From: a virus
Reading direction: 5' to 3' (one strand)
DNA: 64,000 bases
Virus record (IMG/VR): IMGVR_UViG_3300020192_000009
Location: 34,504 to 98,503 of that record
The notes beneath the pieces were generated by a model, which was given only the letters and a program-made list of their open reading frames with translations, was not told where the DNA came from and did no database searches. The first letter of the stretch is position 1. Every line of letters starts with the position of its first letter. Below are positions 2,293 through 58,697 of this stretch, piece by piece. The translations under genes were made by a program, and so were the position numbers.

Positions 2293-3046
2293 GCCGCAAA
2301 GGCTGTGCAATGCCTTTCAAAATTGCAACAGCGCGCAGCCTTGCGTGCCAAAGGCTGTGCAATGCCTTACAAATTGCAACTGCGCGTATATCTTCACTGC
2401 GCAACAAAGGCCGTGCAATGCCTTTCAAAATTGCAACTTCGCACGCGCAGTCTGTGCATGGCCGGTGGCAAAGGCTGTGCAATGCCTTACAAAATTGCAA
2501 CCATGGGGAAAGGCCAGCGCGCGATCTGCTGTGTGACAAAGGCCGTGCAATGCCCTACAAAATTGCAACGTGCGCGTGGTGTTGACCGCGCTACCGCAGC
2601 TTATGCTGTAACAAAGGCTGTGCAATGCCTTTCAAAATTGCAACTTGGACCCGCGGGCGTGGCGCCTGCTGGGCCTGTGACAAAGGCTGCGCAATGCCTT
2701 TCAAAATTGCAACGGATCACCAGCTACCTCTACACCAACGGGTGCGCCCGTGACAAAGGCCGTGCAATGCCTTTCAAAATTGCAACGCGAACTGCGTTCG
2801 CGCCTTGGCGCCAAAGAGGATAGCGTGACAAAGGCTGTGCAATGCCTTTCAAAATTGCAACCGGCATACCACGTCGGCCGCCGCCTCCGGTTTAAGGGTG
2901 ACAAAGGCCGTGCAATGCCTTTCAAAATTGCAACGCGCAAGCATAAGCTGCGCCTCTACGGTCAACACTACGTGACAAAGGCCGTGCAATGCCTTACAAA
3001 ATTGCAAGACGAACGGGCAATATCCAATGTCTTTCAAAATTGTAAC
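2293..3046 (+). CRISPR. CRISPR-like array 1: 11 repeats plus a degenerate terminal copy
   Basis: Repeats start at 2293, 2345, 2401, 2465, 2533, 2608, 2677, 2750, 2825, 2898, 2972; spacers 15,20,27,31,38,32,36,38,36,37 nt; hairpin AAAGGC/GCCTTT; 3' end ATTGCAAC. Confidence 0.9.
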
Positions 3047-3058
3047 AAAGACGTAAAC

Positions 3059-3433
3059 ATGCCCACTAAAAAACCCCGCAAACAATGCACACATTGCCCT
3101 TGGCGTGTGGACGTTGACCCCCACGAGATCCCTAATGGGTATTGCCCCACAAAACACGCCGGACTTAAACGCACGATTGCGCAAGACGCGCATCTTATGC
3201 GAGGGTTACATGTTTTCGTATGCCACGAAACCACTAAGCTGCCGTGTGTCGGTTGGTTGCACAATCAACTTGGCGCGGGCAATAACATCACATTGCGTGT
3301 AGCCGTAATTGAAGGCCGAGTTAACGCCAACTACAAAACCGTTGGCGAGCAACATGAAACATTCGAAGACACTTTACCGGAGCCGCAAAATGGACATGGA
3401 CATGACCGAAACACCAACAACAACGACAGCTGA
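3059..3433 (+). CDS. DUF6283-like Cys-rich phage protein
   Basis: KQCTHCPWR...FVCHE...PCVGWL motif; start MPTKK at 3059. Confidence 0.65.
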   Translation: MPTKKPRKQCTHCPWRVDVDPHEIPNGYCPTKHAGLKRTIAQDAHLMRGLHVFVCHETTKLPCVGWLHNQLGAGNNITLRVAVIEGRVNANYKTVGEQHETFEDTLPEPQNGHGHDRNTNNNDS

Positions 3434-4148
3434 AGAACTGCAAGTGATGCTCAGCGAAATGCACAACGCTAGCATGGCGTTTTACTACACCGCCACGCAC
3501 ATCGGTGTGCATGCATTTATCGAGTTTGCAGGTTTGATGAACGAATTCATTAAAATCTGCAATGACAATTACAAGGCGCACGGCACAAACTTCGCGCATG
3601 CCTCGAAGCACACAGGCAAAGCGTTAGAAATGCAAGCGTACCAAGCGGCGTATCTAGGAGAGAAGTTTGGTTGCATTTTTGGTAACGCCATTACGCCCCA
3701 TTGGGCCGCGTTCGTTACTGCGACGTTTGACGGGCCCGCGCCGGTTGTGCCTTGGACCCCGGTTGCACCTTGGGCGCCTACGCCTGCGGATGTAGTGAGC
3801 TTCTCCCCGCCTTGTCCAGCGTACGACACCGCGCAAACTACCGTTACCGAACAGCAACAAGCTGCACCGCAATTTTTGCCCAAAAGCATTGCGGCCATCC
3901 GCGCAAAACTGAGTGTTGCATTCGATGCTTTTGAAATGGAACAGAACTTTGATTTGCTTGATGATGCGCTCGGTGCCGCGTACCCAGATGGTGAAGCGTC
4001 TGAAAGCGGCTATCAGCCGGGGGCCACAAGGTTGCAGCTTGATTGCTTGATTACGCAATTAACCGACTTTGCAGACGCCGCGAATTCGGCGGCAAGCAAC
4101 CTTGTCAACCTTCGTGAAAAACATTTGAACACACCATGCGCGTCATGA
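3399..4148 (+). CDS. Hypothetical phage protein
   Basis: Long ORF coupled to its neighbours; HAFIEFAGLMNEFIKIC; start approximate. Confidence 0.6.
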   Translation, partial: DMTETPTTTTAEELQVMLSEMHNASMAFYYTATHIGVHAFIEFAGLMNEFIKICNDNYKAHGTNFAHASKHTGKALEMQAYQAAYLGEKFGCIFGNAITPHWAAFVTATFDGPAPVVPWTPVAPWAPTPADVVSFSPPCPAYDTAQTTVTEQQQAAPQFLPKSIAAIRAKLSVAFDAFEMEQNFDLLDDALGAAYPDGEASESGYQPGATRLQLDCLITQLTDFADAANSAASNLVNLREKHLNTPCAS

Positions 4149-4632
4149 CACGCGCAGCGGCAAGGCAACGTGTGTGGCAAAGGCTGGCGGCCCTGCTGAA
4201 ACACGATATCTGCGTAGACGTAGATGTTGAATGGCTGGAAAAGCATGCAAGCCCTGACGGCAAAGGCACGCTGTGCAATCAGCCGCCGTTAAACAGTATG
4301 GATCGCGCATGCTTACGCGCGGCAGCTAGAGACGTGCTCGAAGAATTGACCAAAAAGGCAGAAAAACTATGAAACTTTGGGATTCCCTTAAAAAAGTGTT
4401 CACAAAACAAACGCCAAGATTTGCATTGGGTACGCCCATTCAGTTAACGAAAGACTGTGGGTGCTCGCTACGTTTTGCGGGCCGCATGGGCATTGTGGAA
4501 GGCCAGATCAACCCCAATACATTTTTGGTGCACATTCCCAGTTTACACGCCGAAACCGAAATCGTTATTGTCTGCGCTGCCGGGCTGGCCCCCTTCACAA
4601 ACAACACTGCACTGTTGCACTAGGATTTTTAA

Positions 4633-5652
4633 ATGGCATTTTCAGTTCGTATTCTTGCAGACTCGGTAAGCCCTACAGGCGACCGGCTAACAACGATGCT
4701 CGCGACGTATCCACGCATGATTCATAGCGAGAACATGACGCATCGGATTTTGTCCAAATGCTCGGCATCTTCGCGCGCGATTCCCGTTGAGAAGATGTTG
4801 AGCGCCATCGAAACGGATCCTGTGGTTCCGATCTGGTGGGGCGCAAACCAATCCGGCATGCAAGCCTTGGCAGAGATTGACGACAAAGCCGCCGCTGAAG
4901 CTTGGTGGCGCGAAGGCGTAAACCAATCAGTAGCGCATGCGCGCAAAGGCATCGCGCTCGGATTGCACAAACAAATTGTCAATCGTGTCGTGGAACCCGG
5001 AATGTGGATCACAGTGGTCATGTCGGGCACAAGCTGGACCAACTTTGCAGGCTTACGTTGCCACAAAGACGCAGAACCCCATATGCACCGGTTCGCCGAT
5101 ATGGCGATGGAGTCTGTTGGAAAGTCTGTGCCGATGCCGCTTGCCGCGGGTCAATGGCATTTGCCGTTTATCGGTCCTGAAGACGTTGAGCTTGCTACCA
5201 AATGGATCGAAGATGGCTACGATTCAACAACACGGCCTGATAGCCAATTCATCAAACATGAAATCGAAACCGTCTTGTGCAAAGTTTCGGTTGGCCGTTG
5301 CGCCCGCGTCTCGTACTTAACACATGATGGCAAACGTGACTTGATGGAAGACATCAGGCTACACGACAGGTTGATTGCACAGGTGCCGCTTCATGCGACG
5401 CCTGCAGAGCACGTAGCCATGGCAATGCCGTATCCAGCATGGTTCCAATCCGCGCATTTATCGACACACGAGCTTAACAACATGCGCATGGCATATCGCC
5501 AACAGCGCGAAGCTGCGCCGCAAACACAGATCACACAACTTGAGCTTGAAATCGAAACCTGCCTTGCACAGCTTCAAAGCGGCAATTTCCGAGGCTTTCG
5601 GCAATACCGCAAAATGAAAATGAATGAACACATCGGGGAGCCCATGCCATGA
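4633..5652 (+). CDS. thyX: Flavin-dependent thymidylate synthase (phage type)
   Basis: THRILSKCSASSRAIP, LHKQIVNRVVEP, RCARVSY, HATPAEH motifs. Confidence 0.85.
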   Translation: MAFSVRILADSVSPTGDRLTTMLATYPRMIHSENMTHRILSKCSASSRAIPVEKMLSAIETDPVVPIWWGANQSGMQALAEIDDKAAAEAWWREGVNQSVAHARKGIALGLHKQIVNRVVEPGMWITVVMSGTSWTNFAGLRCHKDAEPHMHRFADMAMESVGKSVPMPLAAGQWHLPFIGPEDVELATKWIEDGYDSTTRPDSQFIKHEIETVLCKVSVGRCARVSYLTHDGKRDLMEDIRLHDRLIAQVPLHATPAEHVAMAMPYPAWFQSAHLSTHELNNMRMAYRQQREAAPQTQITQLELEIETCLAQLQSGNFRGFRQYRKMKMNEHIGEPMP

Positions 5653-5717
5653 ACGTTGCGCGCACGGGCTTACGCGCACGCATTACTATCAACACAATCG
5701 AGTAGAAAGGGGCACAC

Positions 5718-8700
5718 ATGGCTTGGTACGTTCAAACATTTGAAAACTACATCGAAGTCTTCGAGACAGCCGCCAAAGCTGAAGCGTTCGCTAACAGTGC
5801 ATTGCAAGAGGTACGCGATACCGCAAGCGATGGTTGGCCCGAATCTATGACAACTCTCGAATGGGGCGAATTGCAGTGCCACGCGCATTGTCGGCAAATT
5901 TGCGAAATGCTTGCGCCACAAAATTCCGGCTTCGACACGGTAGCGGATTTTGGCCTTCTATCCGCAATCGTACCTGAAATGTCACGTGTCGCGCAGCTTG
6001 AAGCCTTGCTGACAACAATGACTGAGATGCTTGATGTCGATTTAGACGACCATGCTGAAATTCAAACGGCAGTGCAAACAGCGCGCGAACTCCTTGCAAA
6101 ACCGCTTGAGGGTTGGCAACCCATGGCGCCAGGCGCAGCGCTAAAGGCTGCGATGGAAGGCAAGATTGTCGAAGCCAGCCCGGGCGGCGATTTCCCTTGG
6201 CACCGAGTGACGTTCACGCCTGCAGGCTTCGCCTGTTATTATGATGCCATGCCAACAGTAACACGCTTGTATCGTGTGAAAGCTGCACGCGCACCATGAC
6301 AACGCTCAAAGAAAATCACATAGCGGGCCTTGAAACATCAGTTCAACGCTTGGCGGCGCAGGTTGAAACGCTTACTGCCGCAAATGCCAAACTCGTAGCA
6401 GCGGCGGCTGAGAGCGACAACGAATACTTTCGTATTTACACACATGTGCAACGGCTCGAAGGTGTTCTCGGCCAAGCGATCAAATCCGGCTTCACCTGCG
6501 AAGACCTTGTAAAATTGCAAGCGCATTTGCGAGGTGAGTTACCTTGGGCACCGATAGCGCAAGTTAAACGAATTGAACTCGAAACAGAAATTGCCACGCT
6601 TAAAGCCGTCATTGCTATAGCGCGAAAAGCGCAAGAAGATGAATGGCCAGAGTAAAACACACACGAGATTTACAACACTGCAAAAGATAGCCAATGCGCA
6701 CAATACACACAATGACCGCATGGTCCACGGGGCAACATGAAACAGTACGAGCGCGCATCGCCGCGCATCGTGCTGCTGACGAAATCATCCAGGGTATTGG
6801 GTGGAACGGCAAGCGCGGTTGCGCAATCGGCTGCAGCCTAGACGTTTACGACCACGAGGAATTTGCGACTGTGGTGATTGGCAACAACGCGCGAAACGAC
6901 GGCATCAAGATCGCACGCCTTGTGGATCGGCTACACGAATTGTTGCCCCTCGATCTGGCGCTCGACTGGCCCGGTCGTGTAGCGAACGCGCTTACGCCGG
7001 GAGCGGACACAACGCACGTACTGGCTCGCTGGTTCGTATGGTTCTTACGTGTCGAGCTTCATGAACGCGATATTACTACGTACGGCGAACAGATCGCGGT
7101 GCTGTACGAGCGCCGAATTGCAGGCGACGAACCTGATGCTAACGAATGGACCGACGCCGCCGATGCCGCCTATGACGCAGTGAGTGCCATCTACGACGCA
7201 GCTGTTGCCGCCACCAGCAACGCCACCGGTTACGGCGCATACTCCGACTATCCCGTCAGAGTCAACGCCACCTATGGCAGCGCTACACGAATGGCAGATG
7301 CTTTGATCGAAATCATGGCTGCAACAACTCCTTGGGCTTCACGCAAGCCTATCGCTACAGCGATGAAGGGCGGCTAATGTATTTAAGCCCTAGAATTCGC
7401 GGCGTAGCCGGGCTGATTCAGCGCCTCGGCTACAGTGTTATCGACGACGGCACGTGCAAGCCTGCAACCGAACGCGAGTGCGACGTGCCTTATTTGGTCG
7501 TTCAAGTCGAATTCCCTAACATGATGTTTCAAAGGGCCTGGCAATTACGCCACGGGCTATTTGATGCTGGGCACAAGGACGTGGTTGTTGAAATCTCGTA
7601 CTCGACAATAGACAACGTGGCTACGTTAATTGTATTCCCAGAAGGGTTGGCTTCATGCAAGCCTAGCGACACAGTAACGGAGGGCGGACAATGAGGATCA
7701 ATGTCTACAGCCAAGAGATCACGGCAGAAACATCACTGATAAGCAAGGGCAGTAATACGGGAATCACTTACCATGCAGTACAACTTATCCTGCATTCATC
7801 ACCGATGCTGCATCATCCGCCAGAAGATGATGATCGAAGTGCCGTGACCTTCTGGCTCCCAAAGTCGCGAAGCCGCAGGGAGGCGTTCGCCGCCGCCCTT
7901 GAAAATATGGCGCGCCTGGTGCGCACTGCCCCGGAAGAAACGGGATTGGATTAGGCAGTGAAACGCCCACACCGAATCAAAAAGAGTAAATGGAATTGGG
8001 ACAGGTCACACACTGCGCTCACGTACTGGTGGAAACGAGAAGACCGTTGGGCGGACCACATGACCAACTTGGGAACGACCGCTGCTGGAAACCGATGGCG
8101 CGCTGAGGTTGCGAAAGGCTAAATCATGACCACCGAACTCGAAGTGCAACCCGAAGTGCTCCCGCCCGTGGCCGAACAACTGCTGATCGATCTAGCGAAA
8201 ATGCGTGCTCATAGTGAAGCCATACGCAACGCATTCGCAGCCGTGAGCCATGAACGAAGAAACAAAGTTAAACACACAGAAAAGGAACAGCCAATGACCG
8301 ACCGCAAATACAAATACGAAGTGGGGCAACATGTGATCTACGTTGATCCGCTGGGAACTCCACGAGATGCCTTAGTCACAGTTTGGTGGGGCGATGTTCG
8401 AACCTGCGGCGATATCGTCGATGAATCGGGATGCAACGTAGCATTTGTCGAAGGTGACGCCGCCAAAAAAGACGCTAATGGCCGTCAGGTAAGTCACGCC
8501 GCGTCTGTAGTGCACAGGAGTAAGAAAGCCGCTCACGGGCACTATTGGTGTTGGGATTACGAGTTGGACGTAGGTCAAAAATCTATGTTGAACACAGACC
8601 ATAGGTAGCGCGCTTGTTTTAAGCCTCAGACGTAGCGGAGCCTTGAACTGGGACCGCTACGTCTGAAATGGACGTAGTGTTCGACGCGCACTGGCGCGGA

Positions 8701-9336
8701 TGGTGCGCGAGATTTACGCGACAACGACGGAGGACGGACAGTGAACATTGAAGACACACAAGAATGGACCGCGTACGAAAGGACCAAACTTGAAAGTATA
8801 AAGTCTGCGGCGTACCTTGCCCGCTGGACGCACGAAGGGCATCTGCAACTCGGTGAATCGCCGGGGGCCTTAATGCTGGACCACGCGCGCGCCTCGGCTG
8901 CGACTGAACGTTGCCTCGAAAGTGTGAGGCGCAAGCGCTTGGAGTTAGCACCACAGGCACCCGATGCCGATGCCCTCGTGATTGAAGCACATACGCAGGC
9001 GCTAATTCGATACACGAAAACCAACGACGCGACCTTGGCGGCGATACAGACAATGCTCGCGCGGTTGGCTGCGCTTGAGGAGGCAAACCCACATGCAGGG
9101 TTCAACATCGTGCTCGGGGTGAAGCCATGAGCACCATCAGAGTACTCGAAGGCGCTTGGGCAATCGAGAAGGGGGGTACGCCGGATATCCTGTTGACATG
9201 CAACGGCGCGGTCATGTGCGCCATAGACAGCCGTGGAATGCTGACGCACCACGGGCGATCATCCATGGTTCCCATTGATCACGTCGAGGCGCTTATAGCT
9301 GCGTGGCGCGAACACCAAGTGTTGGCCAAACTGTGA
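5718..9336 (+). other. Run of translationally coupled small hypothetical genes (5718-6299, 6296-6655, 6694-7377, ~7377-7694, 7691-7954, 8126-8608, 8741-9130, 9127-9336)
   Basis: Same-strand ORFs with ATGA overlaps and RBSs; no function recognised. Confidence 0.6.
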
Positions 9337-10100
9337 GCACTAACGCGGCGCTAGGAATCGACGGCATGTTTCGGGCTTTGCTAGGGGACACCTTTGCACG
9401 CATGGCTGAAATACCAGACGGCTCAATCGACATGGTGTTAGCCGATCTGCCCTACGGCACATCAAAATGTAAGTGGGATTCAGTTATCCCATTCGAGCCG
9501 TTATGGGCTGCGTACAAACGGGTCTGCAAACCCAATGCAGCGATTGTACTCACGGCTGCTCAACCATTTACAAGCGCTTTGGTGATGAGCAACACCCGAA
9601 TGTTTAAGTATTCATGGATATGGAAAAAAACGAAGGCACGCGGGCATCTGAACGCTTGGAAAATGCCCATGCGCGATCACGAAGACGTTCTTGTGTTTTA
9701 CAGCAAGCAGACTACGTATAACCCGCAAATCACTGATAAGCCTAAAGAGCGCATTCGCCCTCAGACAGCAAGATCCGCGGGATCAGACTGTTACGGAAAA
9801 TTCGGCCTAAGTGCATATAGATGCCCTGCAGATAAGAGCATGCCTAAATCTGTCTTAACATTCACAAATGCCCAGAACACCGTGCACCCCACGCAGAAGC
9901 CCGTGGCGCTCATGGAGTACTTGATCCGGACATACACGAATCCAGGCGATCTAGTGCTCGACAATGTTATGGGCAGCGGCACAACGGGAGTCGCTGCAAT
10001 TCGGGCAAGCCGCCGCTTCGTAGGTATTGAGCGCGACAAAAAGTATTTTGAGATTGCTTGTAAGCGATTGCGAAATGAAAAGGTTGAGGTGACACCATGA
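9333..10100 (+). CDS. DNA N6-adenine/N4-cytosine methyltransferase (beta class)
   Basis: DLPY catalytic motif precedes HPTQKP and DNVMGSGTT SAM motif. Confidence 0.9.
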   Translation: MSTNAALGIDGMFRALLGDTFARMAEIPDGSIDMVLADLPYGTSKCKWDSVIPFEPLWAAYKRVCKPNAAIVLTAAQPFTSALVMSNTRMFKYSWIWKKTKARGHLNAWKMPMRDHEDVLVFYSKQTTYNPQITDKPKERIRPQTARSAGSDCYGKFGLSAYRCPADKSMPKSVLTFTNAQNTVHPTQKPVALMEYLIRTYTNPGDLVLDNVMGSGTTGVAAIRASRRFVGIERDKKYFEIACKRLRNEKVEVTP

Positions 10101-10522
10101 AACGCTATAGCATCCAAAAGAAAACATCATCGGATGGGTTGTACACAACCGCCGCAATGGTCGAAGACCCTGAAGGCAAATACTGCGAATTTGAGAGCTT
10201 TGACATCGGGGATTACGCCACTGATTGCATTGATGCTCTTAAAGTGGCCATTGCCAAAGCCTTTACCACCATTGCCGAGCTTGACGAAATCATCGACAAG
10301 CTACACGCGCCTAGCGCCGCGTACCCTGCAGCCGAATACCACGAGGATTATGGATGCGTGTTGTGGTGGCGCTTTCCTCTCGAAGAACCGCCATGGGTTG
10401 GCAGCCCGTTGGACGATGATTTTACGCCCGACTACTACACGCATTGGTCAAGATTGCGGCTACCCGCGCCCCCGCCGGAATGCGCGCAAGCTGACAGCGA
10501 GAAAGTTGAGGTGAAACCGTGA
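10097..10522 (+). CDS. Hypothetical phage protein
   Basis: Coupled ORF with YHEDYGCVLWWRFP.EEPPWVGSPLD...YYTHW. Confidence 0.6.
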   Translation: MKRYSIQKKTSSDGLYTTAAMVEDPEGKYCEFESFDIGDYATDCIDALKVAIAKAFTTIAELDEIIDKLHAPSAAYPAAEYHEDYGCVLWWRFPLEEPPWVGSPLDDDFTPDYYTHWSRLRLPAPPPECAQADSEKVEVKP

Positions 10523-10706
10523 AACGCAAGATCATCCAAATTACATCGTGTGGCGTACCTAGCGTGCCAGGCTCCTTTAGCGAAATGCTATTCACCCTGT
10601 ATGCACTTTGTGACGATGGCACTGTGTTTCGCCTTTGGGACAACCGTCCAGATAATTGGAAACGTGTGGTGCCCATTCCACAAGACGACACGACGGAGGT
10701 GAAGCC

Positions 10707-11615: not shown

Positions 11616-12379
11616 TAATCAACTACGGAGGCGGTGTTAACAGTCTCGCTATCCTGTGCGGTCTGTACGAACGAGGTATCAAGCCCGCGATCATCGTGTT
11701 CGCCGACACGGGCGGAGAAAAGCCAGAGACTTACGAGAGCATTTCACGTGTTGATGAATGGCTGGCATCTATAGACTGGCCACCCGTTACCCGTGTGACA
11801 AACGCGGGCCGCACCATCAAACGGCGCGATGGCACAACCGTTGTGTATTCGTCGCTCGAAGACGAATGCTTAAAGACTGAGACGCTACCCTCGCGCGCGT
11901 ATGGTTTTGGCCGGTGCGCGGATCACTGGAAGCGTCGCCCCATTGAACGATACTTGCGCAAAGCAGTCACAGGCGAATACACGCAAGCCATTGGCTACGA
12001 TGCGGGGGAAACTGCGCGCGTGAAACACGCGTCAAATCCACGTTCAACACTGTGGTTCCCGCTGATTGATTGGGGTTGGGATCGGGCCGCGTGCTCCGCA
12101 GCCATTGAGCGCCAGGGGTTAAGTATACCTGCTAAATCGGCGTGCTTTTTTTGCCCGTCGTCGAAGAAATCGGAAATACTGGCGTTACCTCTGGACTTGC
12201 GAAAACGTTCGCTAGCAATCGAAGACACGGCCCGCCCCGGTTTCGGCCCTACACTGCACGGCCTGGGACGCCGATTCTCTTGGTCCACGTTTTTGCAGGC
12301 AGACAAGCAGCAACAAGATGCTGCACCTGAATCAATTGTAGAAAGTTGTCTAATGTGCACTGACAGCGAGGATACTTAG
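11603..12379 (+). CDS. PAPS reductase-family (PP-loop) protein
   Basis: NYGGGVNS, FADTGGE, IGYDAGE, FPLIDW, KSACFFCP. Confidence 0.8.
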   Translation: MLNLIINYGGGVNSLAILCGLYERGIKPAIIVFADTGGEKPETYESISRVDEWLASIDWPPVTRVTNAGRTIKRRDGTTVVYSSLEDECLKTETLPSRAYGFGRCADHWKRRPIERYLRKAVTGEYTQAIGYDAGETARVKHASNPRSTLWFPLIDWGWDRAACSAAIERQGLSIPAKSACFFCPSSKKSEILALPLDLRKRSLAIEDTARPGFGPTLHGLGRRFSWSTFLQADKQQQDAAPESIVESCLMCTDSEDT

Positions 12380-12929: not shown

Positions 12930-12966
12930 ATATTTCTGTCACTGCCACGAACTGCCACAAACTGTT

Positions 12967-13191: not shown

Positions 13192-13194
13192 GGC

Positions 13195-15007: not shown

Positions 15008-15012
15008 CCGGG

Positions 15013-28775: not shown

Positions 28776-29393
28776 CTAGCCGTCGCGGCGCCCGCCACCT
28801 TTAAAAGGTGTATCGTCGCGGTGCCGAAACACACGAGGCGCTTTTTCAACAGGTACACGGGCCCGCGTATCCGCGCCTGCGACGTAAACAGCGCTTACCT
28901 TGTAAGGCCGCACAACAGACGCACCGGCATCGGCAGGGGCGCCGCTTACCGGGGGTTTACGGTCTTCGGCCCAAATATCACGAGCTTTGGACATTTTTGA
29001 GAACTTAGCGCCAGGAGGCGATCCCGCGGTTGGCCGCGCTTTAGACACTTTGCCTTTGCGGGCAGCGCGCGCATTCGCAGCCCGCTTTACTTCACGTCGA
29101 GAGCCCACCGCTGTTTGACTTTCGGCAAGTTCAGCGCGCAATGTCCGACCCGCGACAGCTTGGTTTTCGATGGCCTTCACGGCTTCAACAGGACTGCCGG
29201 TCACCTCAACAAAGCCGAACCCGCGAGAAATCCCGGTTGCGCGTTCACGCATGATTTTGGGGTTGATTGCAACAACCCCCATGGATAACAACGCTGCCAG
29301 CAACGTTCGTTCGTCAAAGGTTTGGGGCACATTGCCAATGAACAGCCGGGCGGGTGGCTGCTGTGCGGGTTTGCGCTGTGGTTTTGGAAGCAT
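28776..29393 (-). CDS. RRM-domain RNA-binding protein
   Basis: RNP2 LFIGNV, RNP1 SRGFGFVE, GRTLRAELA. Confidence 0.85.
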   Translation of the reverse strand: MLPKPQRKPAQQPPARLFIGNVPQTFDERTLLAALLSMGVVAINPKIMRERATGISRGFGFVEVTGSPVEAVKAIENQAVAGRTLRAELAESQTAVGSRREVKRAANARAARKGKVSKARPTAGSPPGAKFSKMSKARDIWAEDRKPPVSGAPADAGASVVRPYKVSAVYVAGADTRARVPVEKAPRVFRHRDDTPFKGGGRRDG

Positions 29394-29563
29394 TGTGTAG
29401 CCTTTGCTAGTGTTCACGTTGCAATTTTAAAGGCATTGCAGAACCTTTTGGCATCGCTACGATCATCGTCAACATTGCAATTTTGTAAGGCATTGCACAG
29501 CCTTTGTCACCCGAAGGCGAGATCGTCGTTGCAATTTCTAAGGCATTGCACAGCCTTTAATAG
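29375..29563 (-). CRISPR. Mini-array 2: three repeats (29418, 29474, 29528) plus a degenerate copy (29375-29410)
   Basis: Reverse-complement repeat GTTGCAATTT..AAGGCATTGCACAGCCTTT; spacers about 7, 20 and 17 nt. Confidence 0.8.
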
Positions 29564-31391: not shown

Positions 31392-31841
31392 CTACTCGCA
31401 TTCTTTGGTTTCGAGACGTAAGCCGACAAGGCCCAGGGCCAGCCGCGGCCTGTTGTATTGCTCATTCGCATATGTACGTTGTTGGATTTGAAAATCAATT
31501 GGTAGCCCTGTCATTTTCGTACCCAGTGCCGAGAACGCCATGCAAAGCGCCGCCCACTTTGCGTTCGTACAAGCGCGCACAGGATCCCCTAGACCCAAAC
31601 GCGCATACTCGGCATCGTCGAGTATTAAGCGCACGTCAACATCGCGCCATTCCTTGAAGAACGTTGCCGACCCCACAAGATACGGCAACGTACCAAATGC
31701 GCTCCACACTTGTGAACCGAATTCTTCCAAATACAATGCGGCGGGCATGCCAACATGATTTTGGCAAATGTACTTTTCAGGTTGCAATTTTAAAGGTATT
31801 GCGCAGCCTTTGTCACGTCGTTTGTCCTGCGGCTTTTTCAT
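31392..31841 (-). CDS. Minimal nucleotidyltransferase-like protein carrying an in-frame repeat copy
   Basis: YLVGSA...WRDVDVR...IDFQIQ (GS, DxD, D). Confidence 0.6.
   Translation of the reverse strand: MKKPQDKRRDKGCAIPLKLQPEKYICQNHVGMPAALYLEEFGSQVWSAFGTLPYLVGSATFFKEWRDVDVRLILDDAEYARLGLGDPVRACTNAKWAALCMAFSALGTKMTGLPIDFQIQQRTYANEQYNRPRLALGLVGLRLETKECE
31781..31816 (-). repeat. Solo copy of the CRISPR-like repeat
   Basis: GTTGCAATTTTAAAGGTATTGCGCAGCCTTTGTCAC, 2 mismatches to the array variants. Confidence 0.9.
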
Positions 31842-50457: not shown

Positions 50458-50756
50458 TTATATAACAGTGTCAAGCGCGTTACGTAGAGTTTACCGCCGA
50501 AACGCTTACTCTTTTTGGTTGGCCGCGTCACGGGCGGCGCGGCGGCGCGTTTGGATCTCGTAAACAAGGATGTCCAAGCCGAGGATCGCAACGATCACGG
50601 CAAAGCCTAGCTGCCAAAGCTTCAGGCCCCATACGATGTCTAGATTGCTAAATGCGCTCACAGACATACAGGAATAACGCAAACGCATATTTGCGTCAAG
50701 TTTAAAAAAGGGCGCGCCACGCGTTTACACGGCATTGCGGGGCCTTTACGCCATTA

Positions 50757-50777
50757 GGACGTAGCTGCCCCCTCCCC
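50757..50777 (-). repeat. Core of the left copy of the inverted element flanking the 451-aa gene
   Basis: GGACGTAGCTGCCCCCTCCCC is a 20/21 reverse complement of 52391-52411. Confidence 0.85.
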
Positions 50778-50964
50778 ACACGAAACGAGACGTTTGGTGA
50801 AGCGTAGTAGCGGAAGTGAAATTGTGAACGGTCGTTACCGTAGCGTGTGTATGCGAATTTGCCAATGCTTTTTTAACGTGGCCTAAATGCCACATGTAGT
50901 TACGTGCACGCCACACGACGTAACTTGACGAACACGGGTGTAACGAGCTAAATCGGAAGACCCT

Positions 50965-52320
50965 ATGCAACAACATGTAGAACGAATGAAAAATGATCCG
51001 AAGGTGCAAAACGCTCTACTGAATCAAGCGATTCGGAACGACCGCCGCACCACTCGAAAGCCCACCAGCCGTATCGAGTTGGGCTACCAGGAAGAGATGC
51101 AAACCGCTCGTATTTGGGATCGCGAAATGTCGCGACTTTTGGCGATGCATGCAGCGAATCCGTTTAACGATGCCGATGAACGTGAAATTTGCAGCACTAT
51201 TGAAAAACGTTTGCTGTATGCAAATACGCACTTTGCAAAGTTCACTTGCACTCATGGATTGCCAACCGAACGCTGCGTGTTGTGCGTTCGCGCATTTGTA
51301 GCGCAAGACCATCAGCTGTCATGCGTATCGGCGCACCGGGAGGCAGCAACGCATGCCGACCGCGTAGGCGCTTCCGTTGCGTCCGAGATTGAGCTTGGCG
51401 GCAAAGCCTTCACGCTAGTGGCAACACACGCTGATGATGCGGACGCCACAATCACACAAAACGAATTGTTGGCCTTACGCAAACTCGGTGTAGCGCGCGG
51501 CGTGGACACATGGATCTTGCCAGATAGCACAGTGGTCGCTGTGGTCGTTATTGAGGCTTCTGATGAATTAAATCTTATAGGGATCACATGTAATTCAATT
51601 CGTACGCAACCCTTGAGCGATACCACGCAGCTTCGTCGCTTCTATCGGCAGTACCCTGAATGTTTGAAACGTTTAACAGTGCAACGTTGCATGACTGTGT
51701 TCTTGGAACGCAAACGACGTGCCCGCGAAAAAACTAAAGGCACCAGTGTGAACCAAGCTGCCCGTAACGGTATGGCAGCACATGCAGAAATACTCGCCGC
51801 CTTAGCGCCAGAGTTAAAGCCACGTAAGACACGTACGCCCAACATACGAATGAGGCGCAGCAATGGAATCTTTCGGCAACGTGGCCTGCGTATGGCAATC
51901 GCAAGCACTTGTATCGAACACACAAGCCCGGAGTTAAAACAAGCAGTTGCAACACAAGTTGCGCTTGCACAAGCACTTGAAAGTACGTTTACACGTGAAG
52001 ACGCGATCAGCCTTGAAAGCTGGACACGTAATCATGAATTGAATGTCATGCAGCTTGGCGCTGTAGCTTTGCAGGAAGGCCGTACAGGCACCGCTAACAG
52101 GACGGCAATCTTGCTAGGCGTGCTTCGTGGCCAACGTGCGAAGGCCCACAAGCGCAGCAAGCATGCAATGGGTGCCCGCACCCCCGCCGACAATCATATC
52201 GTGCCCCTGCCCGCGTTTGCGAACCACACATGCAAAACGCACAACGCACCCGTTGTGTTCCTTGGCATTGTGAATATCGGTCGCGACGCCACTAACGTTG
52301 CTGCGCTAAACGCGCTGTAA
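50965..52320 (+). CDS. Candidate compact, divergent TnpB/Cas12-like (type V) effector, possibly nuclease-dead
   Basis: RuvC-I-like GVD181TWILPDSTVVAV; basic helix RAREKTKGTS; RuvC-II-like DAISLE351; IVPLPAFANHTCKTH; RuvC-III-like RD441ATNVAALN; directly upstream of array 3. Confidence 0.5.
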   Translation: MQQHVERMKNDPKVQNALLNQAIRNDRRTTRKPTSRIELGYQEEMQTARIWDREMSRLLAMHAANPFNDADEREICSTIEKRLLYANTHFAKFTCTHGLPTERCVLCVRAFVAQDHQLSCVSAHREAATHADRVGASVASEIELGGKAFTLVATHADDADATITQNELLALRKLGVARGVDTWILPDSTVVAVVVIEASDELNLIGITCNSIRTQPLSDTTQLRRFYRQYPECLKRLTVQRCMTVFLERKRRAREKTKGTSVNQAARNGMAAHAEILAALAPELKPRKTRTPNIRMRRSNGIFRQRGLRMAIASTCIEHTSPELKQAVATQVALAQALESTFTREDAISLESWTRNHELNVMQLGAVALQEGRTGTANRTAILLGVLRGQRAKAHKRSKHAMGARTPADNHIVPLPAFANHTCKTHNAPVVFLGIVNIGRDATNVAALNAL

Positions 52321-52390
52321 CGCCTTTAAATTTACGGTTCACACAACCCTTTCCACCACTACTACCACTTACTCACTTCCGTTCATACCG

Positions 52391-52411
52391 GGGGAGGGGG
52401 GAGCTACGTCC
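52391..52411 (+). repeat. Core of the right copy of the inverted element
   Basis: GGGGAGGGGGGAGCTACGTCC. Confidence 0.85.
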
Positions 52412-52502
52412 ATGTTACGCACACAGCGCGCGCCACTTTTATTTTTGTACGATATTCACTCTCGCTTTACTTGTGCGTTTACGAATCTTGTCGTAAAAGA
52501 TT

Positions 52503-53147
52503 GTAACAAAGGCTGTGCAATGCCTTTCAAAATTGCAACGCGGGCATCGTGCCAAAGGCTGTGCAATGCCTTTCAAAATTGCAACACAGCCAGCCGCGCG
52601 ACGAGGTTGGCGCGCGCGACAGTGCCAAAGGCTGTGCAATGCCTTACAAATTGCAACATACCGACACAGCGGTATTAGCCGCGCTCATGTCGGCGTGCCA
52701 AAGGCTGTGCAATGCCTTTCAAAATTGCAACCAATACTGGGGCGGGAGCTATCATCGCCAACTCGGGTGTCGCGAAGGCTGTGCAATGCCTTACAAAATT
52801 GCAACAGACGCGAGAAGGCGCACTACATACGGTCGCAAAGGCTGTGCAATGCCTTTCAAAATTGCAATAAGACGCGGCTTTCACCAAAGGCTGTGCAATG
52901 CCTTACAAAATTGCAACTGCTCGATTTGGACGAAGGCTGCGCAATGCCTTTCAAAATTGCAACAAGACGAAAGGCATCGTACCAAAGGCTGTGCAATGCC
53001 TTAGAAATTGCAACTGATTCGCAGCTGCGTTAGTTGCGGCAACAAAGGCTGTGCAATGCCTTTAAAATTGCAACGAATAAAAGGAACGAAAGGCCATGGC
53101 TGGTGCAAATTGCAACAAAGGCTGTGCAATGCCTTTAAAATTGCAAC
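52503..53147 (+). CRISPR. CRISPR-like array 3: 11 repeats
   Basis: Repeats start at 52503, 52549, 52622, 52695, 52769, 52832, 52881, 52927, 52979, 53039, 53112; spacers 9,36,37,37,26,12,9,15,24,37 nt. Confidence 0.9.
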
Positions 53148-53183
53148 ACGCGTACTCGGCACAGTGTCAACAACTTTGGACAG

Positions 53184-53317
53184 AAAAAAAGCGGCCAAAC
53201 TTTCGTCTGGCCGCTTGCAATGGGCGGAGTACACAGTGATCGGGATGCAACTCCCTTAACCTATTAACACATAGAATGCTTCGATGTAGGATATCGAAAC
53301 GGAAGATCCGCTTTGCA
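53184..53317 (-). ncRNA. Candidate tracr/scout-like structured RNA with its own promoter and terminator
   Basis: TTGACG(53352-47)-N17-CAGATT with extended TG; hairpin GGGA-GUUGCA-UCCC; CAUUGCA; terminator GCGGCCA/UGGCCGC-U7. Confidence 0.5.
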
Positions 53318-53430
53318 AAGGTGAATCTGCCAGTTCCTTAACAGCGCGTCAAGTCTTTTGAACGTTAAAACGGTCAAAAAAGAGGGGATACGTGCGTCTT
53401 GTACACGACGCTAGTTTGTGGTTAAGATAC

Positions 53431-53465
53431 CCAAAAGGCCATGTAACGCCTTTCAGAATTGCAAT
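53431..53465 (+). repeat. Degenerate solo repeat in the 5' UTR of 53474-53755
   Basis: AAAGGCCATGTAACGCCTTTCAGAATTGCAAT. Confidence 0.75.
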
Positions 53466-53473
53466 AAATCAGT

Positions 53474-53755
53474 ATGGCCTTAGTTTTACGTTTTCGGTGT
53501 CCTTGTTGTGGCGCATCGCGTGGTGTTCAGCATTACGGGCTTGATCCTTTGGAAAACGGCGAGGTGTACCTTGGCCGTCCTGAACACACAGTAGAGCGCC
53601 TGCTATTCGAGATAGGGGGTCGAGGGAGCGCGCACGTCGTTGAACGTGGGGCCATCAACCTCGAAGCCGCCAGGGCACTTGCCGCATCTGTACGGGATGC
53701 CCTGGCACAACTCGAAAGCGAGATCGCTGAAGCCGTCAACGCTGCAGGCGATTAG
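53474..53755 (+). CDS. Small hypothetical protein (CPCCG)
   Basis: ORF downstream of TTGTAC-N18-TAAGAT. Confidence 0.55.
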   Translation: MALVLRFRCPCCGASRGVQHYGLDPLENGEVYLGRPEHTVERLLFEIGGRGSAHVVERGAINLEAARALAASVRDALAQLESEIAEAVNAAGD

Positions 53756-54090
53756 GCCGTGGGCTCGTCCGTAGAGATCGCGGATGCGTACAATCCCCAT
53801 AACAGTACAGCTTCAAAAACTGGCGTAAGGAACAGGCCAAGTAAGCCCGCAGCGGCAACGCTTAGCGGCGCCCAAGGCCATGTCACGAGTTGATCTAGCG
53901 GGCGCAGGCCTATGAAATAGGCACCGATGCCTAGCCACCAGCCCGAACACGCGGGGCACGCTAGCAGTTTCCCCACGAAGCCCGTACCAACATTGCCCCA
54001 AAACACTTGCGTGATCTCGGCCCGCGCAATCAGCCAATGTGTTGCTGCCAATAACACGCCCAGGGCCGCAATCTGAATCAATGTGTGCAT
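53752..54090 (-). CDS. DUF1360-like membrane protein
   Basis: LLACPACSGWW within hydrophobic helices. Confidence 0.6.
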   Translation of the reverse strand: MHTLIQIAALGVLLAATHWLIARAEITQVFWGNVGTGFVGKLLACPACSGWWLGIGAYFIGLRPLDQLVTWPWAPLSVAAAGLLGLFLTPVFEAVLLWGLYASAISTDEPTA

Positions 54091-54094
54091 GTGG

Positions 54095-54493
54095 CTAGCC
54101 TTTCCTTACGCGGTCACGAAGTGCCATGCGAAACCGCATGTCTTCGCGGGTTGCGACTTGCCGAAAAGACTCGCATGTAGCGGCGTCTTCGGTGGGCCGT
54201 GCTTCGCGGCGACACCAGCCCATATTCTGTAAATACAGCGTAATCGAAGGCCTTCCCGGGAAATCCTTCACAATGGGCGTTTGGATTGCGCCATTTTGCT
54301 CAATGGTCAGCCCATGCGCTTGAAAATGCTGGGCAAGTTTTTTCTCGTCTTTTTCCCATGATTTGCACATAAAGCACGGATTGCCTTCAATGCCCTTTTG
54401 TAAATCAATGACACCTTTTGCGTTGGCGTCACCGTCGCCTCCTGTAATGCGAACTTTCTGCCAATCGGTTGTTTTTTCATTGTTGTCGCTCAT
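54095..54493 (-). CDS. Cys-containing hypothetical protein
   Basis: CFMCKSW...GWC...TCESF. Confidence 0.6.
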   Translation of the reverse strand: MSDNNEKTTDWQKVRITGGDGDANAKGVIDLQKGIEGNPCFMCKSWEKDEKKLAQHFQAHGLTIEQNGAIQTPIVKDFPGRPSITLYLQNMGWCRREARPTEDAATCESFRQVATREDMRFRMALRDRVRKG

Positions 54494-54543
54494 TGCGGTT
54501 GGATGTTATGCAACACAATGCCAATACACAATGACAAAAAGCG

Positions 54544-54572
54544 TTGACATTGCAGTGCTAGATTCTTAATGT
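54544..54572 (+). promoter_or_regulatory. Sigma70-type promoter
   Basis: TTGACA-N17-TAATGT upstream of 54583. Confidence 0.55.
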
Positions 54573-54582
54573 TTGCCCCAAC

Positions 54583-56784
54583 ATGGCAGTCGGCGAAAGC
54601 GCGTCCCCAAAAGGTTCACCGGATCTAAGTAAATTGCAGGCAATGCAAGATCCGATGGTTGTTGTCACCAAAGGCCGGAAAGGTGCAAGTCGCTCAATTC
54701 TTGCGGGACAACGGCTTAAAGTGCCGGATATCCTGGCATTGCATAAAGATTTGCCATTGAGCTTTGGCCCTGGCATTTACAAATTTGAGGTTACCGATGC
54801 TGCTGGCGATGGTACCGGCAAAGACGCATGGACGGCCCAGCTAGGTGGCGAAGTCGGGGAAATCCCAACGCTTCCTGTGGTTTCTAATGAATTCGGCGAA
54901 GGAGCTTTTCCAATGACTGTGGTTGCTAATAGCGTGACACCTCCGACAATGAGCGCCGCCAATGCGGCTGCAATGGGCGTCCCAATGCCCCCCGCGCAGC
55001 CGACAATGCCAATAGGCATGTCAATGCCCACGTCAATGAACGGCGGCATGGGTGGCATGTCCCCCGGCGCAATGGAAGGCTCCCGGCAAATCGGCCCTGG
55101 CTGGTGGTACAACGAAACGCTAGGCATGCTGATTAACCGTAATGGTGAGTTGCACGCTTGGCGCACTGGCATGCCGCTGCCAGGCTCTGCCGTTGCTACG
55201 CCACCTGCAGCATCACCATGGGGCGCTGGCGCTATGGCTGGCGGACTTCCCCCTTGGGGCACAATGCCGGTCACCGAGGATCCTAGACTTGTGCAACTTG
55301 AGGCGCAATTGCGTGAAGCACGCGAAGACGTGAAAGAGCGCGCACGGCAAGCCGAGTTGCAGGTTTTGCGTGATGCAATGACCAAACTCGCAGACGCGTT
55401 TTTAGCAAAGCCCACGGGCCCCTCTGAAAACGAACGCGCGTTGCAGGCCCAAGTGGAAGCACAACAGCGTGCCACCGAGACACTACGCCAAGAAAGTGCA
55501 CAGCGTGAGTTTGCGCGCCAACAGGACGACAATCGTCGCCGCGACGAAGATGCACGACGCGTTGAATTCAATGCGGTTGTTGCAAACCTACAAGCGCAGA
55601 TCAAAGAGGGGAACACCTCTAAGGTTGATCCGATGATTACCATGATCACGCAAATGATGAATGCACAACAGACGGCAAGCACCACAATGCTCCAAGCCGT
55701 GCAAAACGCGGCGCTTAATGGTGCTGAAGTTGCTCGTGAAAGTAATCGTCAAATAATTGAGCGGTTAAGCAGTTCACAAATGACACCTGAGCGCATGATG
55801 GACGTGCTCAAGGTTGCAAAGGATCGTGGGCCTGAAGCCGAAATGGGCAAGCTACAAGTTGGCATGTTCAAGGATTTGCTTAACATGTCGCAAGACATGA
55901 ACAGGCAAATCATCGACGCCAATTCAGGTGGACAACAGCCTGTGTGGGTGGGCTTGCTGCAACAGACGCTTGAAAAGGGCGGGGCCATTGCGCAACAACT
56001 TGCATTGACGCGAGCCAATGAAGTTGCGCGCCAGGAGCGCCAAGAACGTGAACAGCGGAGGCAAGACGCTATTGAACGGCAACGACGCCTGGAACAAACA
56101 ACAACGCCTGCGCAAGCACGCACGCAAATCGCTGCAGTCGCGTCTGCCAAAGCACCCGCTAAAGCAGTTGACGCGCGTACATCCAGCCAAACGGAACGTG
56201 ATGCCATTGCAGCACGTATGTTCCCCACGGCTACACAGGGCAGTGCTGCAGCCGAGCGTGATGCCGCAGCCGCTACAGTCTTTCGAGCCGCTGACCATGC
56301 GCCCCTGCATGCCGTAAGTGACATCGAAGACGGGGAAGACGAAGAGTATGAAGATGGGGAAGACGAAGACGAGGAAGACGAAGAAGACGAAATTGTAGCG
56401 GCCAAAGAACTTGGTGTAGACGTAGCCAAAATCAAGCCAATGGACATTTCCAAAGTCTCGCCTGCGGTGATCCGCAAGCAGATCAAAAAAGTGTCTGATG
56501 CTGATTTCTTCGGGGCGTCTTGGCCGCATGTGCAAGACCTACGCAAATCGATCATGGCTGGTGAGATTGAACCCGAAGCCGCAGCAACGTTTATTGCGCA
56601 AGCATGCGCGCAGCTGCAAAGCTTTGGGCAGGTGCCGCCTGCTGTGGAATTGCTTTTCACAGGGCACATTGACATTGCAATCGAGCGGTTAGCGCCCGAT
56701 GCACCTGCCAGGTTTCGCACACTCTTGATCGCTCTGGTGCAAGAAGGCATCGACAACGCTGCGCCGCCTGAAAGCGGCAACTAA
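54583..56784 (+). CDS. Large coiled-coil protein with Met/Gln/Pro-rich and acidic tracts, function unknown
   Basis: 733-aa ORF with heptads and a poly-D/E tract. Confidence 0.75.
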   Translation: MAVGESASPKGSPDLSKLQAMQDPMVVVTKGRKGASRSILAGQRLKVPDILALHKDLPLSFGPGIYKFEVTDAAGDGTGKDAWTAQLGGEVGEIPTLPVVSNEFGEGAFPMTVVANSVTPPTMSAANAAAMGVPMPPAQPTMPIGMSMPTSMNGGMGGMSPGAMEGSRQIGPGWWYNETLGMLINRNGELHAWRTGMPLPGSAVATPPAASPWGAGAMAGGLPPWGTMPVTEDPRLVQLEAQLREAREDVKERARQAELQVLRDAMTKLADAFLAKPTGPSENERALQAQVEAQQRATETLRQESAQREFARQQDDNRRRDEDARRVEFNAVVANLQAQIKEGNTSKVDPMITMITQMMNAQQTASTTMLQAVQNAALNGAEVARESNRQIIERLSSSQMTPERMMDVLKVAKDRGPEAEMGKLQVGMFKDLLNMSQDMNRQIIDANSGGQQPVWVGLLQQTLEKGGAIAQQLALTRANEVARQERQEREQRRQDAIERQRRLEQTTTPAQARTQIAAVASAKAPAKAVDARTSSQTERDAIAARMFPTATQGSAAAERDAAAATVFRAADHAPLHAVSDIEDGEDEEYEDGEDEDEEDEEDEIVAAKELGVDVAKIKPMDISKVSPAVIRKQIKKVSDADFFGASWPHVQDLRKSIMAGEIEPEAAATFIAQACAQLQSFGQVPPAVELLFTGHIDIAIERLAPDAPARFRTLLIALVQEGIDNAAPPESGN

Positions 56785-56806
56785 CAACGCGATTGTCAGG
56801 TGCCAT

Positions 56807-57254
56807 GTGCGCGTACCAGGACAGTTACCAAAGCGGCGGAAGTTCGAGCCGAACGATCCGCATGCGGAAGGTTGGGAGGTTGCCGCAGCTGAAGGGCTGC
56901 GTACAGCGAATCCCTACGGCGCGTATACGGATGATGCGCGCCGATGGACCGATGGCTACAACGAATACGTTGAGACTGAAGACCAATGCGCGGATTGAAG
57001 CTGCGCGAAGCATGCACGTTTGATATTGTGAGTGTATGTTTAAATTAAAGCGCCCAACAATGATCCCAAAAGGGTACGAGCCTATGTGCCCCCTTTCCGA
57101 AGGCTGCGACGCCGCTACCTTCGGAAAGTCGCGGCTGTTGAACCCCTACACAGTTGGCACGTACGAGGCTTCTGAATGGGACAAGGGCTATTTCATGATG
57201 GTGGGGGATCGCGATGCGTCCGATCCCGACCCTGATGATGCGTGTGCGAATTAA
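56807..57254 (+). CDS. Two tandem Rmf/CrpP-like small proteins (56807-56998, 57036-57254)
   Basis: EG..A...G.....NPY......W..GY motif in both. Confidence 0.55.
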
Positions 57255-57568
57255 GCGGCACGTCGCATGCAGTGTTCACATGCATGCCAATCAAATGCAA
57301 TGCATGCGGAACACCAACCTACGAAACTTCAGGCATTTATGGCGAGGTGCCTCTATGCGAACGTCACCACAATGAAGCGGTGCGGGTCCTTGGGGTTACA
57401 GCGCGGTGGGGAAAACCGGCTGCTATCGTAGTTGAAAGCCGTGTCTCATTCGCGCGCCCACAACAACGGAAAATTGCGGACAATCAAAACGTGTGGCTTG
57501 GTTACCGTTGGACGGGCCATTAACCTTCGCGTGTGTTGCTGCCAAACGCGCGATCCGTCAATTCAGTA

Positions 57569-58697
57569 GTTGCAATTTTGAAAGGCATTGCACAGCCTTT
57601 GTCGCTTCGCAGGGAAACTCACAAAACGCAGGAGGTTGCAATTTCTAAGGCATTGCACAGCCTTTGCTACCCACACAACCTGCACCTGTCGTTGCAATTT
57701 GAAAGGCATTGCACAGCCTTTGTCACGCGCTTGCCGTGGTTGCAATTTGTAAGGCATTGCACAGCCTTTGTCACGGGCTAACGCAAATTCGTATTGCATT
57801 GTCGTTGCAATTTTGTAAGGCATTGCACAGCCTTTGTCACGCTTGGAGTGCCGCCAAGAAGCGCCGACATCTCTTCGTTGCAATTTCTAAGGCATTGCAC
57901 AGCCTTTGTCACCTCCATCGCATGTGGCGCTCACTTCGTGTATGTCGTTGCAATTTTGAAAGGCCTTGCACAGCCTTTGTTGCTTCGCAGGGAAGCCCTA
58001 AAAAACGCAGTTGCAATTTCTAAGGCATTGCACAGCCTTTGTCACGCGCTTGCTAGGTGGAGTGGCTGCACTGGTGTTGCAATTTTGAAAGGCATTGCAC
58101 AGCCTTTGTCACTCTTCAGTTGTTGCAATTTGTAAGGCATTGCACAGCCTTTGTCGCCGACTATTCCCCGCGCTCAATAAATGATGCAGTACTTTGGTTG
58201 CAATTTTGAAAGGCATTGCACAGCCTTTGTCGCATCGAGCACCTTCAAACGTTGCAATTTTGTAAGGCATTGCACAGCCTTTGTCGCTTCGCAGGGAAGC
58301 CCTAGAAAACGCAGTTGCAATTTCTAAGGCATTGCACAGCCTTTGTCACAAGCGTTGCAATTTTAAAGGCATTGCACAGTCTTTGTCGCAGCCTTGCACG
58401 AGCTTGTCTTCGGTTGCAATTTTGTAAGGCATTGCACAGCCTTTGTCACTGCTTGTCGTGGTTGCAATTTTGAAAGGCATTGCACAGCCTTTGTCACCCG
58501 CTGAGCCCGCGCGAGTAGCGTCTGCTCATGGCGTTGCAATTTCTAAGGCATTGCACAGCCTTTGCTAGAAGAGATCGGCGGCTTCAGGTTGCAATTTTAA
58601 AGGCATTGCACAGCCTTTGCTAGATCACATTTTCCCATCCCGCCATTCGTTGCGACGATGTGTTGCAATTTTAAAGGCATTGCACAGCCTTTGCTAG
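57569..58697 (-). CRISPR. CRISPR-like array 4: 19 repeats
   Basis: Reverse-complement repeats from 57569 to 58662; spacers in + order 29,20,12,29,36,34,26,30,9,39,17,26,4,23,11,35,19,38 nt. Confidence 0.9.

Follow-up and report, generated by a model that had tools for sequence, protein, structure and literature searches.

What does a phage do with several arrays of one repeat, set far apart in its genome and separated by spacers of very uneven length? The question is raised by a 64,000-nucleotide (nt) stretch of viral DNA, hereafter the window, which comprises bases 34504-98503 of the 98.5-kb IMG/VR virus record IMGVR_UViG_3300020192_000009 (completeness estimate of the record, 88%). An earlier reading of the window, made from its sequence only, had described about 44 near-intact repeats in four loci and had proposed that they serve as a guide library for silencing host or rival-phage genes, or in part as decoy RNAs against a host Cas system. 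Our analysis supports this proposal in part. We consider it likely that the repeats are CRISPR arrays of a phage-encoded subtype V-M (Cas12m) system, in which dispersed guide loci serve an effector that binds DNA without cutting it. This answer is carried by the family of the effector, the fold of the repeat, the orientation of the arrays, their reshuffling between strains and purifying selection on the effector gene, cas12m. Processing of the guides, DNA binding, the targets and the source of new spacers enter it as predictions.

The effector and the fold of its repeat

The effector gene lies outside the window, on contig L049. An open reading frame (ORF) of 735 amino acids (aa) at L049:5786-7993 matches the Pfam family Cas12f1-like_TNB (PF07282; E=3.7e-9, above the cut-off). 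When a profile of this protein and two homologues was compared with solved structures, it matched Cas12m chains with E values of 5.4e-98, 1.8e-45, 8e-38 and 4e-32, while TnpB and Cas12f were matched with only 1e-4 to 1e-7. The two closest Cas12m homologues share 59% and 32% identity with the phage protein. Residues D422, E611 and D699 (the RuvC D-E-D triad) and the zinc finger cysteines C668/C671/C687/C692 (CxxC...CxxC) are invariant in the alignment. At E<1e-30 the Cas12m family comprises 2294 representatives, most of them 560-650 aa long; the phage protein has ~120 extra residues near positions 137-255. Between two strains, cas12m differs by 14 synonymous and 4 conservative codon changes, and hence is under purifying selection. 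Since no TNB domain was found anywhere in the 98.5-kb record, the 735-aa protein is the only effector candidate.

Several observations tie this gene to the record. Two abutting, spacer-less copies of the repeat begin 31 nt after the cas12m stop codon, and the 14 nt before this cas12m-adjacent repeat (CGACAATTTGCCGC) are identical to the 14 nt before the first repeat of the leftmost array of the window (array 1 below). The end of a second contig, L054, is an exact match to the first 70 nt of the record, L054 and L049 are 96.6% identical where they overlap, and the gene order of both follows that of a related phage genome, G001. Finally, L049 starts with an inverted copy of the record's last letters (CCCCTAACCAG), the two copies lying at independent contig ends:

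L049:1-40, terminal sequence, starts CCCCTAACCAGG
Window 63960-64000 (record end), terminal sequence, inverted relative to the former, ends CTGGTTAGGGGGGGG

These inverted outer ends, and the sum of 98.5 and 14.1 kb, which fits the 88% completeness, suggest that the phage genome is linear, ~112.7 kb long and bounded by short terminal inverted repeats. Measured from the left genome end, cas12m sits at ~6-8 kb, which places it roughly 40 kb to the left of the window; all spacer-bearing arrays are 25-100 kb away from the gene.

Next, the phage repeat was compared with the repeats of related systems. Twelve IMG/VR loci encoding relatives of the 735-aa Cas12m were collected, and ten of them have an array of 36-37-nt repeats with regular 34-40-nt spacers just downstream of the gene, on the same strand. 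Seven of these loci's repeats were aligned with the phage repeat, giving eight systems. All eight follow a common plan: a 5-bp stem, a loop that pairs with a stretch of 5-6 nt, which stops 2 nt short of the 3' end, and AC at the terminus. Across the eight systems, 90% of the cells of the stem and pseudoknot are paired, compared with a mean of 65% in shuffled repeats, and none of 500 shuffles reached 90%. In the pseudoknot helix 100% of the cells are paired, and each of the five pairs shows compensatory changes, while slid controls of the pairing reached 29-44%. In the phage repeat the pseudoknot strands fall at -24..-19 and -8..-3; in the cryo-electron microscopy structure of Cas12m2 they fall at -22..-17 and -8..-3 (PMC10442227). 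When a single repeat was folded, the hairpin alone was weak (-7.3 kcal/mol, z -0.5), and therefore the support for the fold comes from covariation rather than from energy. Judged by this covariation, the repeat is a Cas12m repeat with the predicted fold of a guide scaffold, a stem plus a pseudoknot.

Two other large ORFs were considered as effectors and rejected. The 451-aa orphan ORF at 50965-52320 (+), upstream of array 3, has no match in Pfam, PHROG or PADLOC, no similarity to a TnpB-like protein of the related phage G002 (see below) and no homologue in the relatives. The 733-aa ORF at 54583-56784 (+), between arrays 3 and 4, has no family match, and its homologues (25-28% identity) occur in the array-less relatives G001 and G003. 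ESM Atlas searches with both ORFs were uninformative. Two conserved small genes on the - strand (53752-54493) lie beside the 733-aa ORF.

Also encoded in the left 14 kb of the genome (L054:6963-8447 (-) and L049:20-2477 (+)) are a MoxR-type AAA ATPase with a VWA/metallopeptidase partner, a 494-aa ORF that weakly matches intein splicing, and a lectin-domain lipoprotein.

Arrays, spacers and strain variants

The repeat has a consensus of 36-37 nt, GTGAC-AAAGGCTGTGCAATGCCTT-(TC/AC/AG/TA)AAA(A)TTGCAAC. With a 32-nt core and up to three mismatches, 26 matches were found in the window and none in 100 shuffles. A scan with a 19-nt core gave 45 copies, namely 44 near-intact repeats in four arrays and one solitary copy, in keeping with the count of the sequence-only reading. 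A fifth array just left of the window and the two-repeat cluster adjoining cas12m had escaped that reading, and bring the phage as a whole to ~53 repeats at six loci. The repeat loci in and next to the window are as follows:

2293-3047, + strand, array 1: 11 repeats (2293-3008) and a degenerate 12th at 3025-3047
29375-29563, - strand, array 2: 3 repeats (29418-29563) and a degenerate 4th at 29375-29412
31781-31816, - strand, solitary repeat with 2 core mismatches, at a gene junction
52503-53147, + strand, array 3: 11 repeats
53429-53465, + strand, diverged solitary repeat in which the stem and pseudoknot still form (one G-U pair)
57569-58697, - strand, array 4: 19 repeats, at the 3' end of a - strand operon
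Record 33.2-33.8 kb, - strand, array 5: just left of the window

When the repeat is read as ending in TTGCAAC, all arrays are co-directional with the flanking ORFs, as had been stated for the four arrays of the window, and each spacer is thereby placed after its repeat handle. The five spacer-bearing arrays are located within operons or at operon ends. Array 1 lies between a tyrosine recombinase gene and a DUF6283 gene (start 3059). An (AAC)n microsatellite of ~9 units (window 2200-2232) spans the recombinase stop codon just before it. Directly downstream of array 2 is an RRM_1 gene (28776-29417 (-); E=3.4e-6, above the cut-off), whose start codon falls within the degenerate last repeat of that array. 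Array 3 is followed by a strong hairpin terminator at 53189-53216, and the diverged solitary repeat beyond it stops 8 nt upstream of the start codon of ORF 53474-53755. A scan for sigma-70 promoters around arrays 3 and 4 gave chance-level hits only, and neither Rfam (at gathering thresholds) nor a tRNA scan had any match in the window. The earlier statement that the window lacks cas1 and cas2 can be extended beyond the window: a six-frame search of the entire 98.5-kb record, for which control genomes were positive, gave neither Cas1 (PF01867) nor Cas2 (PF09827), and neither was found among the larger ORFs of the 14-kb left part.

Many spacers are very short, as the sequence-only reading had noted. 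The 40 spacers of the window range from 4 to 39 nt; 23 are shorter than 30 nt and nine shorter than 17 nt. Their lengths are 15, 20, 27, 31, 38, 32, 36, 38, 36 and 37 nt in array 1, 17 and 20 nt in array 2, and 9, 36, 37, 37, 26, 12, 9, 15, 24 and 37 nt in array 3, where the last 'spacer' holds a decayed repeat. Array 4 has spacers of 4-39 nt, including three diverged copies of one spacer. Assembly error had been named as a possible source of short spacers. Spacers of 4, 9, 11, 12, 15 and 20 nt recur in independently assembled contigs from other samples, and thus the short spacers are not assembly artefacts.

Where else does the repeat occur? A scan of metagenomes returned ten contigs of the Joint Genome Institute (JGI), all of them strain variants of the phage or parts of its genome missing from the record. 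The suggestion that the same repeat might be met in bacterial CRISPR loci was not borne out, as single chance matches were all that IMG/VR and the genomes of 185,579 prokaryote species (one per species) yielded. Since these collections show it nowhere else, the repeat is private to this phage population. No DNA similarity to the genome or the arrays was found among GenBank phages, and no close relative was found in IMG/VR with the DNA polymerase as bait.

The strain variants have flanks that are 84-98% identical, mostly 92-98%, and keep their arrays at the same loci across at least 12 samples. Within this layout the arrays are reshuffled. In variant L051 the order of two spacers of array 1 is swapped; array 5 of L045 also contains the 15-nt spacer of array 1; an insertion of seven units brings array 4 of L052 to 26 repeats; and array 3 of L048 has only the last spacer in common with the window. 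Strain-specific new spacers are present as well. Spacer paralogues differ from one another by 4-30% and have lost letters at either end, some overlap in a shifted register, and some 'spacers' hold collapsed repeats, while the 19-nt core of the repeat is nearly invariant across copies. Logan contigs from mat metagenomes are interrupted at the arrays, and joints of array 3 with array 4 occur among them. In all, there are 66 distinct spacers of 3-39 nt, of which 53 are at least 17 nt long, 13 are shorter and 19 are of 36-39 nt. The distribution of lengths has a hard cap and a mode at 36-39 nt and a flat tail down to 3 nt, unlike the narrow V-M range of 34-40 nt.

Spacers of at least 30 nt have a guanine-plus-cytosine (GC) content of 59.1%, compared with 53.5 +/- 1.6% for the phage. 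Searches against the phage itself, its strain variants and 1.8 Mb of other loci gave nothing beyond chance-level 15-16-mers. The GC excess and the lack of self matches suit foreign targets. Two scans of IMG/VR with spacer-family patterns gave one 22/22 match and nothing else: the first 22 nt of a 38-nt spacer of array 1 (window 2569-2606) match an SbcC-like gene of a 208-kb IMG/VR phage (L151:1380-1401). A spacer of L048 covers homologous sequence, shifted by 11 nt from the matching one. The SbcC-like gene may represent a real target family, or the match may be due to chance.

Proposed mechanism and rival explanations

In the mechanism that we propose, the arrays would be transcribed as parts of phage mRNAs. 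Cas12m would recognize each repeat through its stem and pseudoknot, cut within the repeat, and keep the repeat handle with the first ~17-20 nt of the following spacer; members of the family process their own precursor CRISPR RNA (PMC11013384). The complex would then bind matching DNA of the host, a rival phage or a plasmid, provided that a protospacer-adjacent motif (PAM) lies beside it, and would block transcription or replication without cutting. Binding of PAM-flanked double-stranded DNA without cleavage, with transcription or replication blocked as a result, is known for Cas12m, D-E-D variants included (PMC11013384). The guide library for binding and silencing put forward by the sequence-only reading therefore matches the kind of effector found; what fails is a Cas-less framing, which is wrong at the level of the genome, where the phage has a Cas12m of its own.

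The same mechanism would accommodate uneven spacers. A 17-bp guide-target heteroduplex is optimal for Cas12m2 (PMC10442227). As a guide of ~17 nt suffices and binding is the output, truncation of a spacer to ~17 nt would be tolerated, and as a 36-38-nt spacer has twice the length needed, its partial loss need not abolish function. Spacers shorter than ~17 nt would probably be inert or weakly regulatory. Subtype V-M systems are normally without adaptation genes (PMC11013384), and since the phage has none either, the arrays would change by recombination between identical repeats, through duplication, deletion and exchange both between arrays and between co-infecting strains. Uptake of spacers through a host enzyme acting in trans is possible.

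Five points weigh against a Cas12m guide system. The assembled record that carries the arrays does not include cas12m, and the join consists of the 70-nt overlap, synteny and the shared repeats. No confident protospacer was found in the searches above, and hence no PAM or target; the lone 22/22 match could be chance. The 13 distinct spacers below 17 nt fall short of the optimal heteroduplex. The seed end of spacers, next to the repeat, is also lost in truncations, and some repeats have collapsed, a pattern that resembles neutral decay no less than tuning. Lastly, other virus-borne Cas12m arrays keep 34-40-nt spacers, and thus the raggedness is not required by the effector.

A more far-reaching version of the proposal can be formulated, which we regard as doubtful. 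A lytic-type phage would have turned a binding-only Cas12m into a natural network of CRISPR interference (CRISPRi) and RNA processing. Arrays would be spread over operons for timed expression, handles would stand before selected phage genes, the repertoire would be renewed by recombination between strains instead of by Cas1-Cas2, and sub-17-nt spacers would be retained for the regulatory value of weak or partial binding.

The rival that survives best, improbable as we judge it, is that the arrays are decaying relics. A once-normal array with 36-38-nt spacers would have been duplicated around the genome and would now be wearing away through deletion and recombination, its present function being slight or nil. 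The cap and mode of spacer length at 36-39 nt with a flat tail to 3 nt are what such erosion would leave, as are spacers truncated from either end, collapsed repeats, repeats inside 'spacers', and a cas12m-adjacent array that is down to two spacer-less repeats. It counts against relics, however, that nearly all copies have an identical 19-nt core although divergence among spacer paralogues reaches 4-30%, and that the same loci are kept in strains with 84-98% identical flanks from at least 12 samples. The purifying selection on cas12m and the strain-specific new spacers likewise speak against decay.

It is quite improbable that the repeats act mainly on the phage's own RNA, as sites where Cas12m docks or cuts and thereby sets transcript ends or the translation of neighbouring genes, with DNA guiding being secondary. 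This alternative is partly compatible with the Cas12m guide system. Arrays and solitary copies are intergenic and run in the direction of transcription, and the start codons of the lectin-domain gene, ORF 53474 and the DUF6283 gene each follow an intact handle at a distance of 8-30 nt. Most copies, however, are in long tandem arrays, which are needless for marking junctions, and arrays 3 and 4 close their operons and have no gene after them.

The decoy RNAs of the sequence-only reading, or more generally Cas-less arrays aimed at a host CRISPR system in the manner of solitary-repeat RNA anti-CRISPRs or of the mini-arrays of Cas-borrowing viruses, are very unlikely. Phage mimics of CRISPR repeats are known (PMC10651486), and many repeats here are followed by spacers too short to guide, with two lacking a spacer altogether. 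Yet a host repeat to be mimicked is missing from all 185,579 prokaryote species (one genome each) and from non-phage JGI metagenome contigs, and the phage encodes its own cognate effector.

The last alternative invokes the gene next to array 1:

1488-2204, + strand, tyrosine recombinase of 238 aa; Pfam Phage_integrase E=9.5e-17

Its catalytic R-K-H-R-H-Y residues are conserved in 26 homologues. The family is compact (235-250 aa), and its catalytic domain carries a four-Cys zinc ribbon as an invariant insertion; it is conserved in this phage group and has ~70 homologues in metagenomes, three of them in 95-122-kb viral contigs. That the repeats are sites of this recombinase, shuffled as cassettes in an integron- or shufflon-like manner, is the least likely explanation of all: array 1 does begin 88 nt after the end of the gene, the core of the repeat has the form of a 6-8-6 inverted repeat, spacers have been swapped in order and moved between arrays, and contigs join arrays 3 and 4, but orthologues (42-65% identity) in G001, G002 and G003 have no array within 10 kb, G001 and G003 have no arrays anywhere (14-mer count), the fold of the repeat is accounted for by Cas12m, and homologous recombination among ~50 identical 37-nt repeats suffices for the shuffling. 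The recombinase is probably not part of the CRISPR system, judging from its distribution among the relatives.

Comparison with known systems

Cas12m is a compact natural DNA binder that has been adapted for base editing and gene-circuit tools. To our knowledge, its natural use by mobile elements has barely been described. The phage population analysed here provides a natural data set, drawn from at least 12 microbial-mat metagenomes and several strain variants, in which an effector that only binds is found together with relaxed lengths of spacers, scattered arrays and turnover driven by recombination. It makes testable what the minimum natural length of a Cas12m guide is, how spacers are renewed without Cas1-Cas2, and whether a phage silences host or rival genes in a timed manner.

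As references for subtype V-M, we used MmCas12m2, GoCas12m and MsCas12m (Wu 2022 as cited in PMC10442227; PMC10442227; PMC11013384). The phage system shares with them the effector family, the TNB zinc finger and the RuvC fold, a 36-37-nt repeat with a stem and pseudoknot scaffold and the spacer 3' of the handle, and, on both sides, the absence of adaptation genes and of a requirement resembling a trans-activating CRISPR RNA (tracrRNA). It differs in that the effector has 735 aa rather than the typical 560-650, in its D-E-D as opposed to an H-D-D triad, in spacers of 3-39 nt instead of 34-40 nt, and in that the main arrays are at five loci 25-100 kb from cas12m and do not adjoin the gene. Among known V-M members, triads of D-E-D, H-D-D or N-D-D are found.

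Plasmids and some prophages are known to carry V-M systems (PMC11656645). A preprint of September 2026 described a Cas12m in the myxophage MV-1, with one canonical array of eight spacers beside the gene, and claimed it as the first phage example (bioRxiv 10.64898/2026.09.14.751636). Our phage resembles both these mobile-element systems and MV-1 in having a mobile carrier, no adaptation module, no confident protospacers and a presumed role in competition between elements or interference with the host. Unlike MV-1, it spreads ~53 repeats over six loci, its spacers are ragged, and its arrays are heavily reshuffled from strain to strain.

A further likeness is to regulatory mini-arrays (Shmakov et al., bioRxiv 10.1101/2023.03.03.530964) and RNA anti-CRISPR (Racr) RNAs (PMC10651486), where spacers are also short or absent and some copies stand directly upstream of genes. 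For binding-only effectors, the use of guides with partial or short complementarity is known. Mini-arrays and Racr RNAs, however, consist of one or two units with conserved, promoter-matching spacers, whereas the phage has long arrays with variable spacers. The class of Cas-less elements that borrow a host system does not fit either, as the repeat matched no host repeat in the genomes and metagenomes searched and the cognate effector is present. In G001-G003, recombinase and array are not inherited together, which sets the phage apart from integrons and shufflons.

The relative G002 (IMG/VR, 121.5 kb) belongs to the same phage group, sharing ~35 genes at 25-68% amino-acid identity, and in it, too, a type V-like gene precedes an array of 36-nt repeats, close to the SNF2 helicase gene. 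This locus (L143:16097-18448; record 116.1-118.4 kb) comprises a 602-aa protein and eight 36-nt repeats with regular 36-39-nt spacers. The protein matches PF07282 (8e-14) and has OrfB_IS605 and HTH domains; its closest solved structure is TnpB, not Cas12m. The G002 repeat, in contrast to that of our phage, is unrelated in sequence except for the GTGAC start. Given the TnpB-like protein, the unrelated repeat and the regular spacers, the type V-like locus of G002 is an independent acquisition.

In conclusion, V-M systems on mobile elements are already known. New in this phage are repeats dispersed up to ~100 kb from the effector gene, ragged spacers and reshuffling between strains, combined with an enlarged Cas12m.

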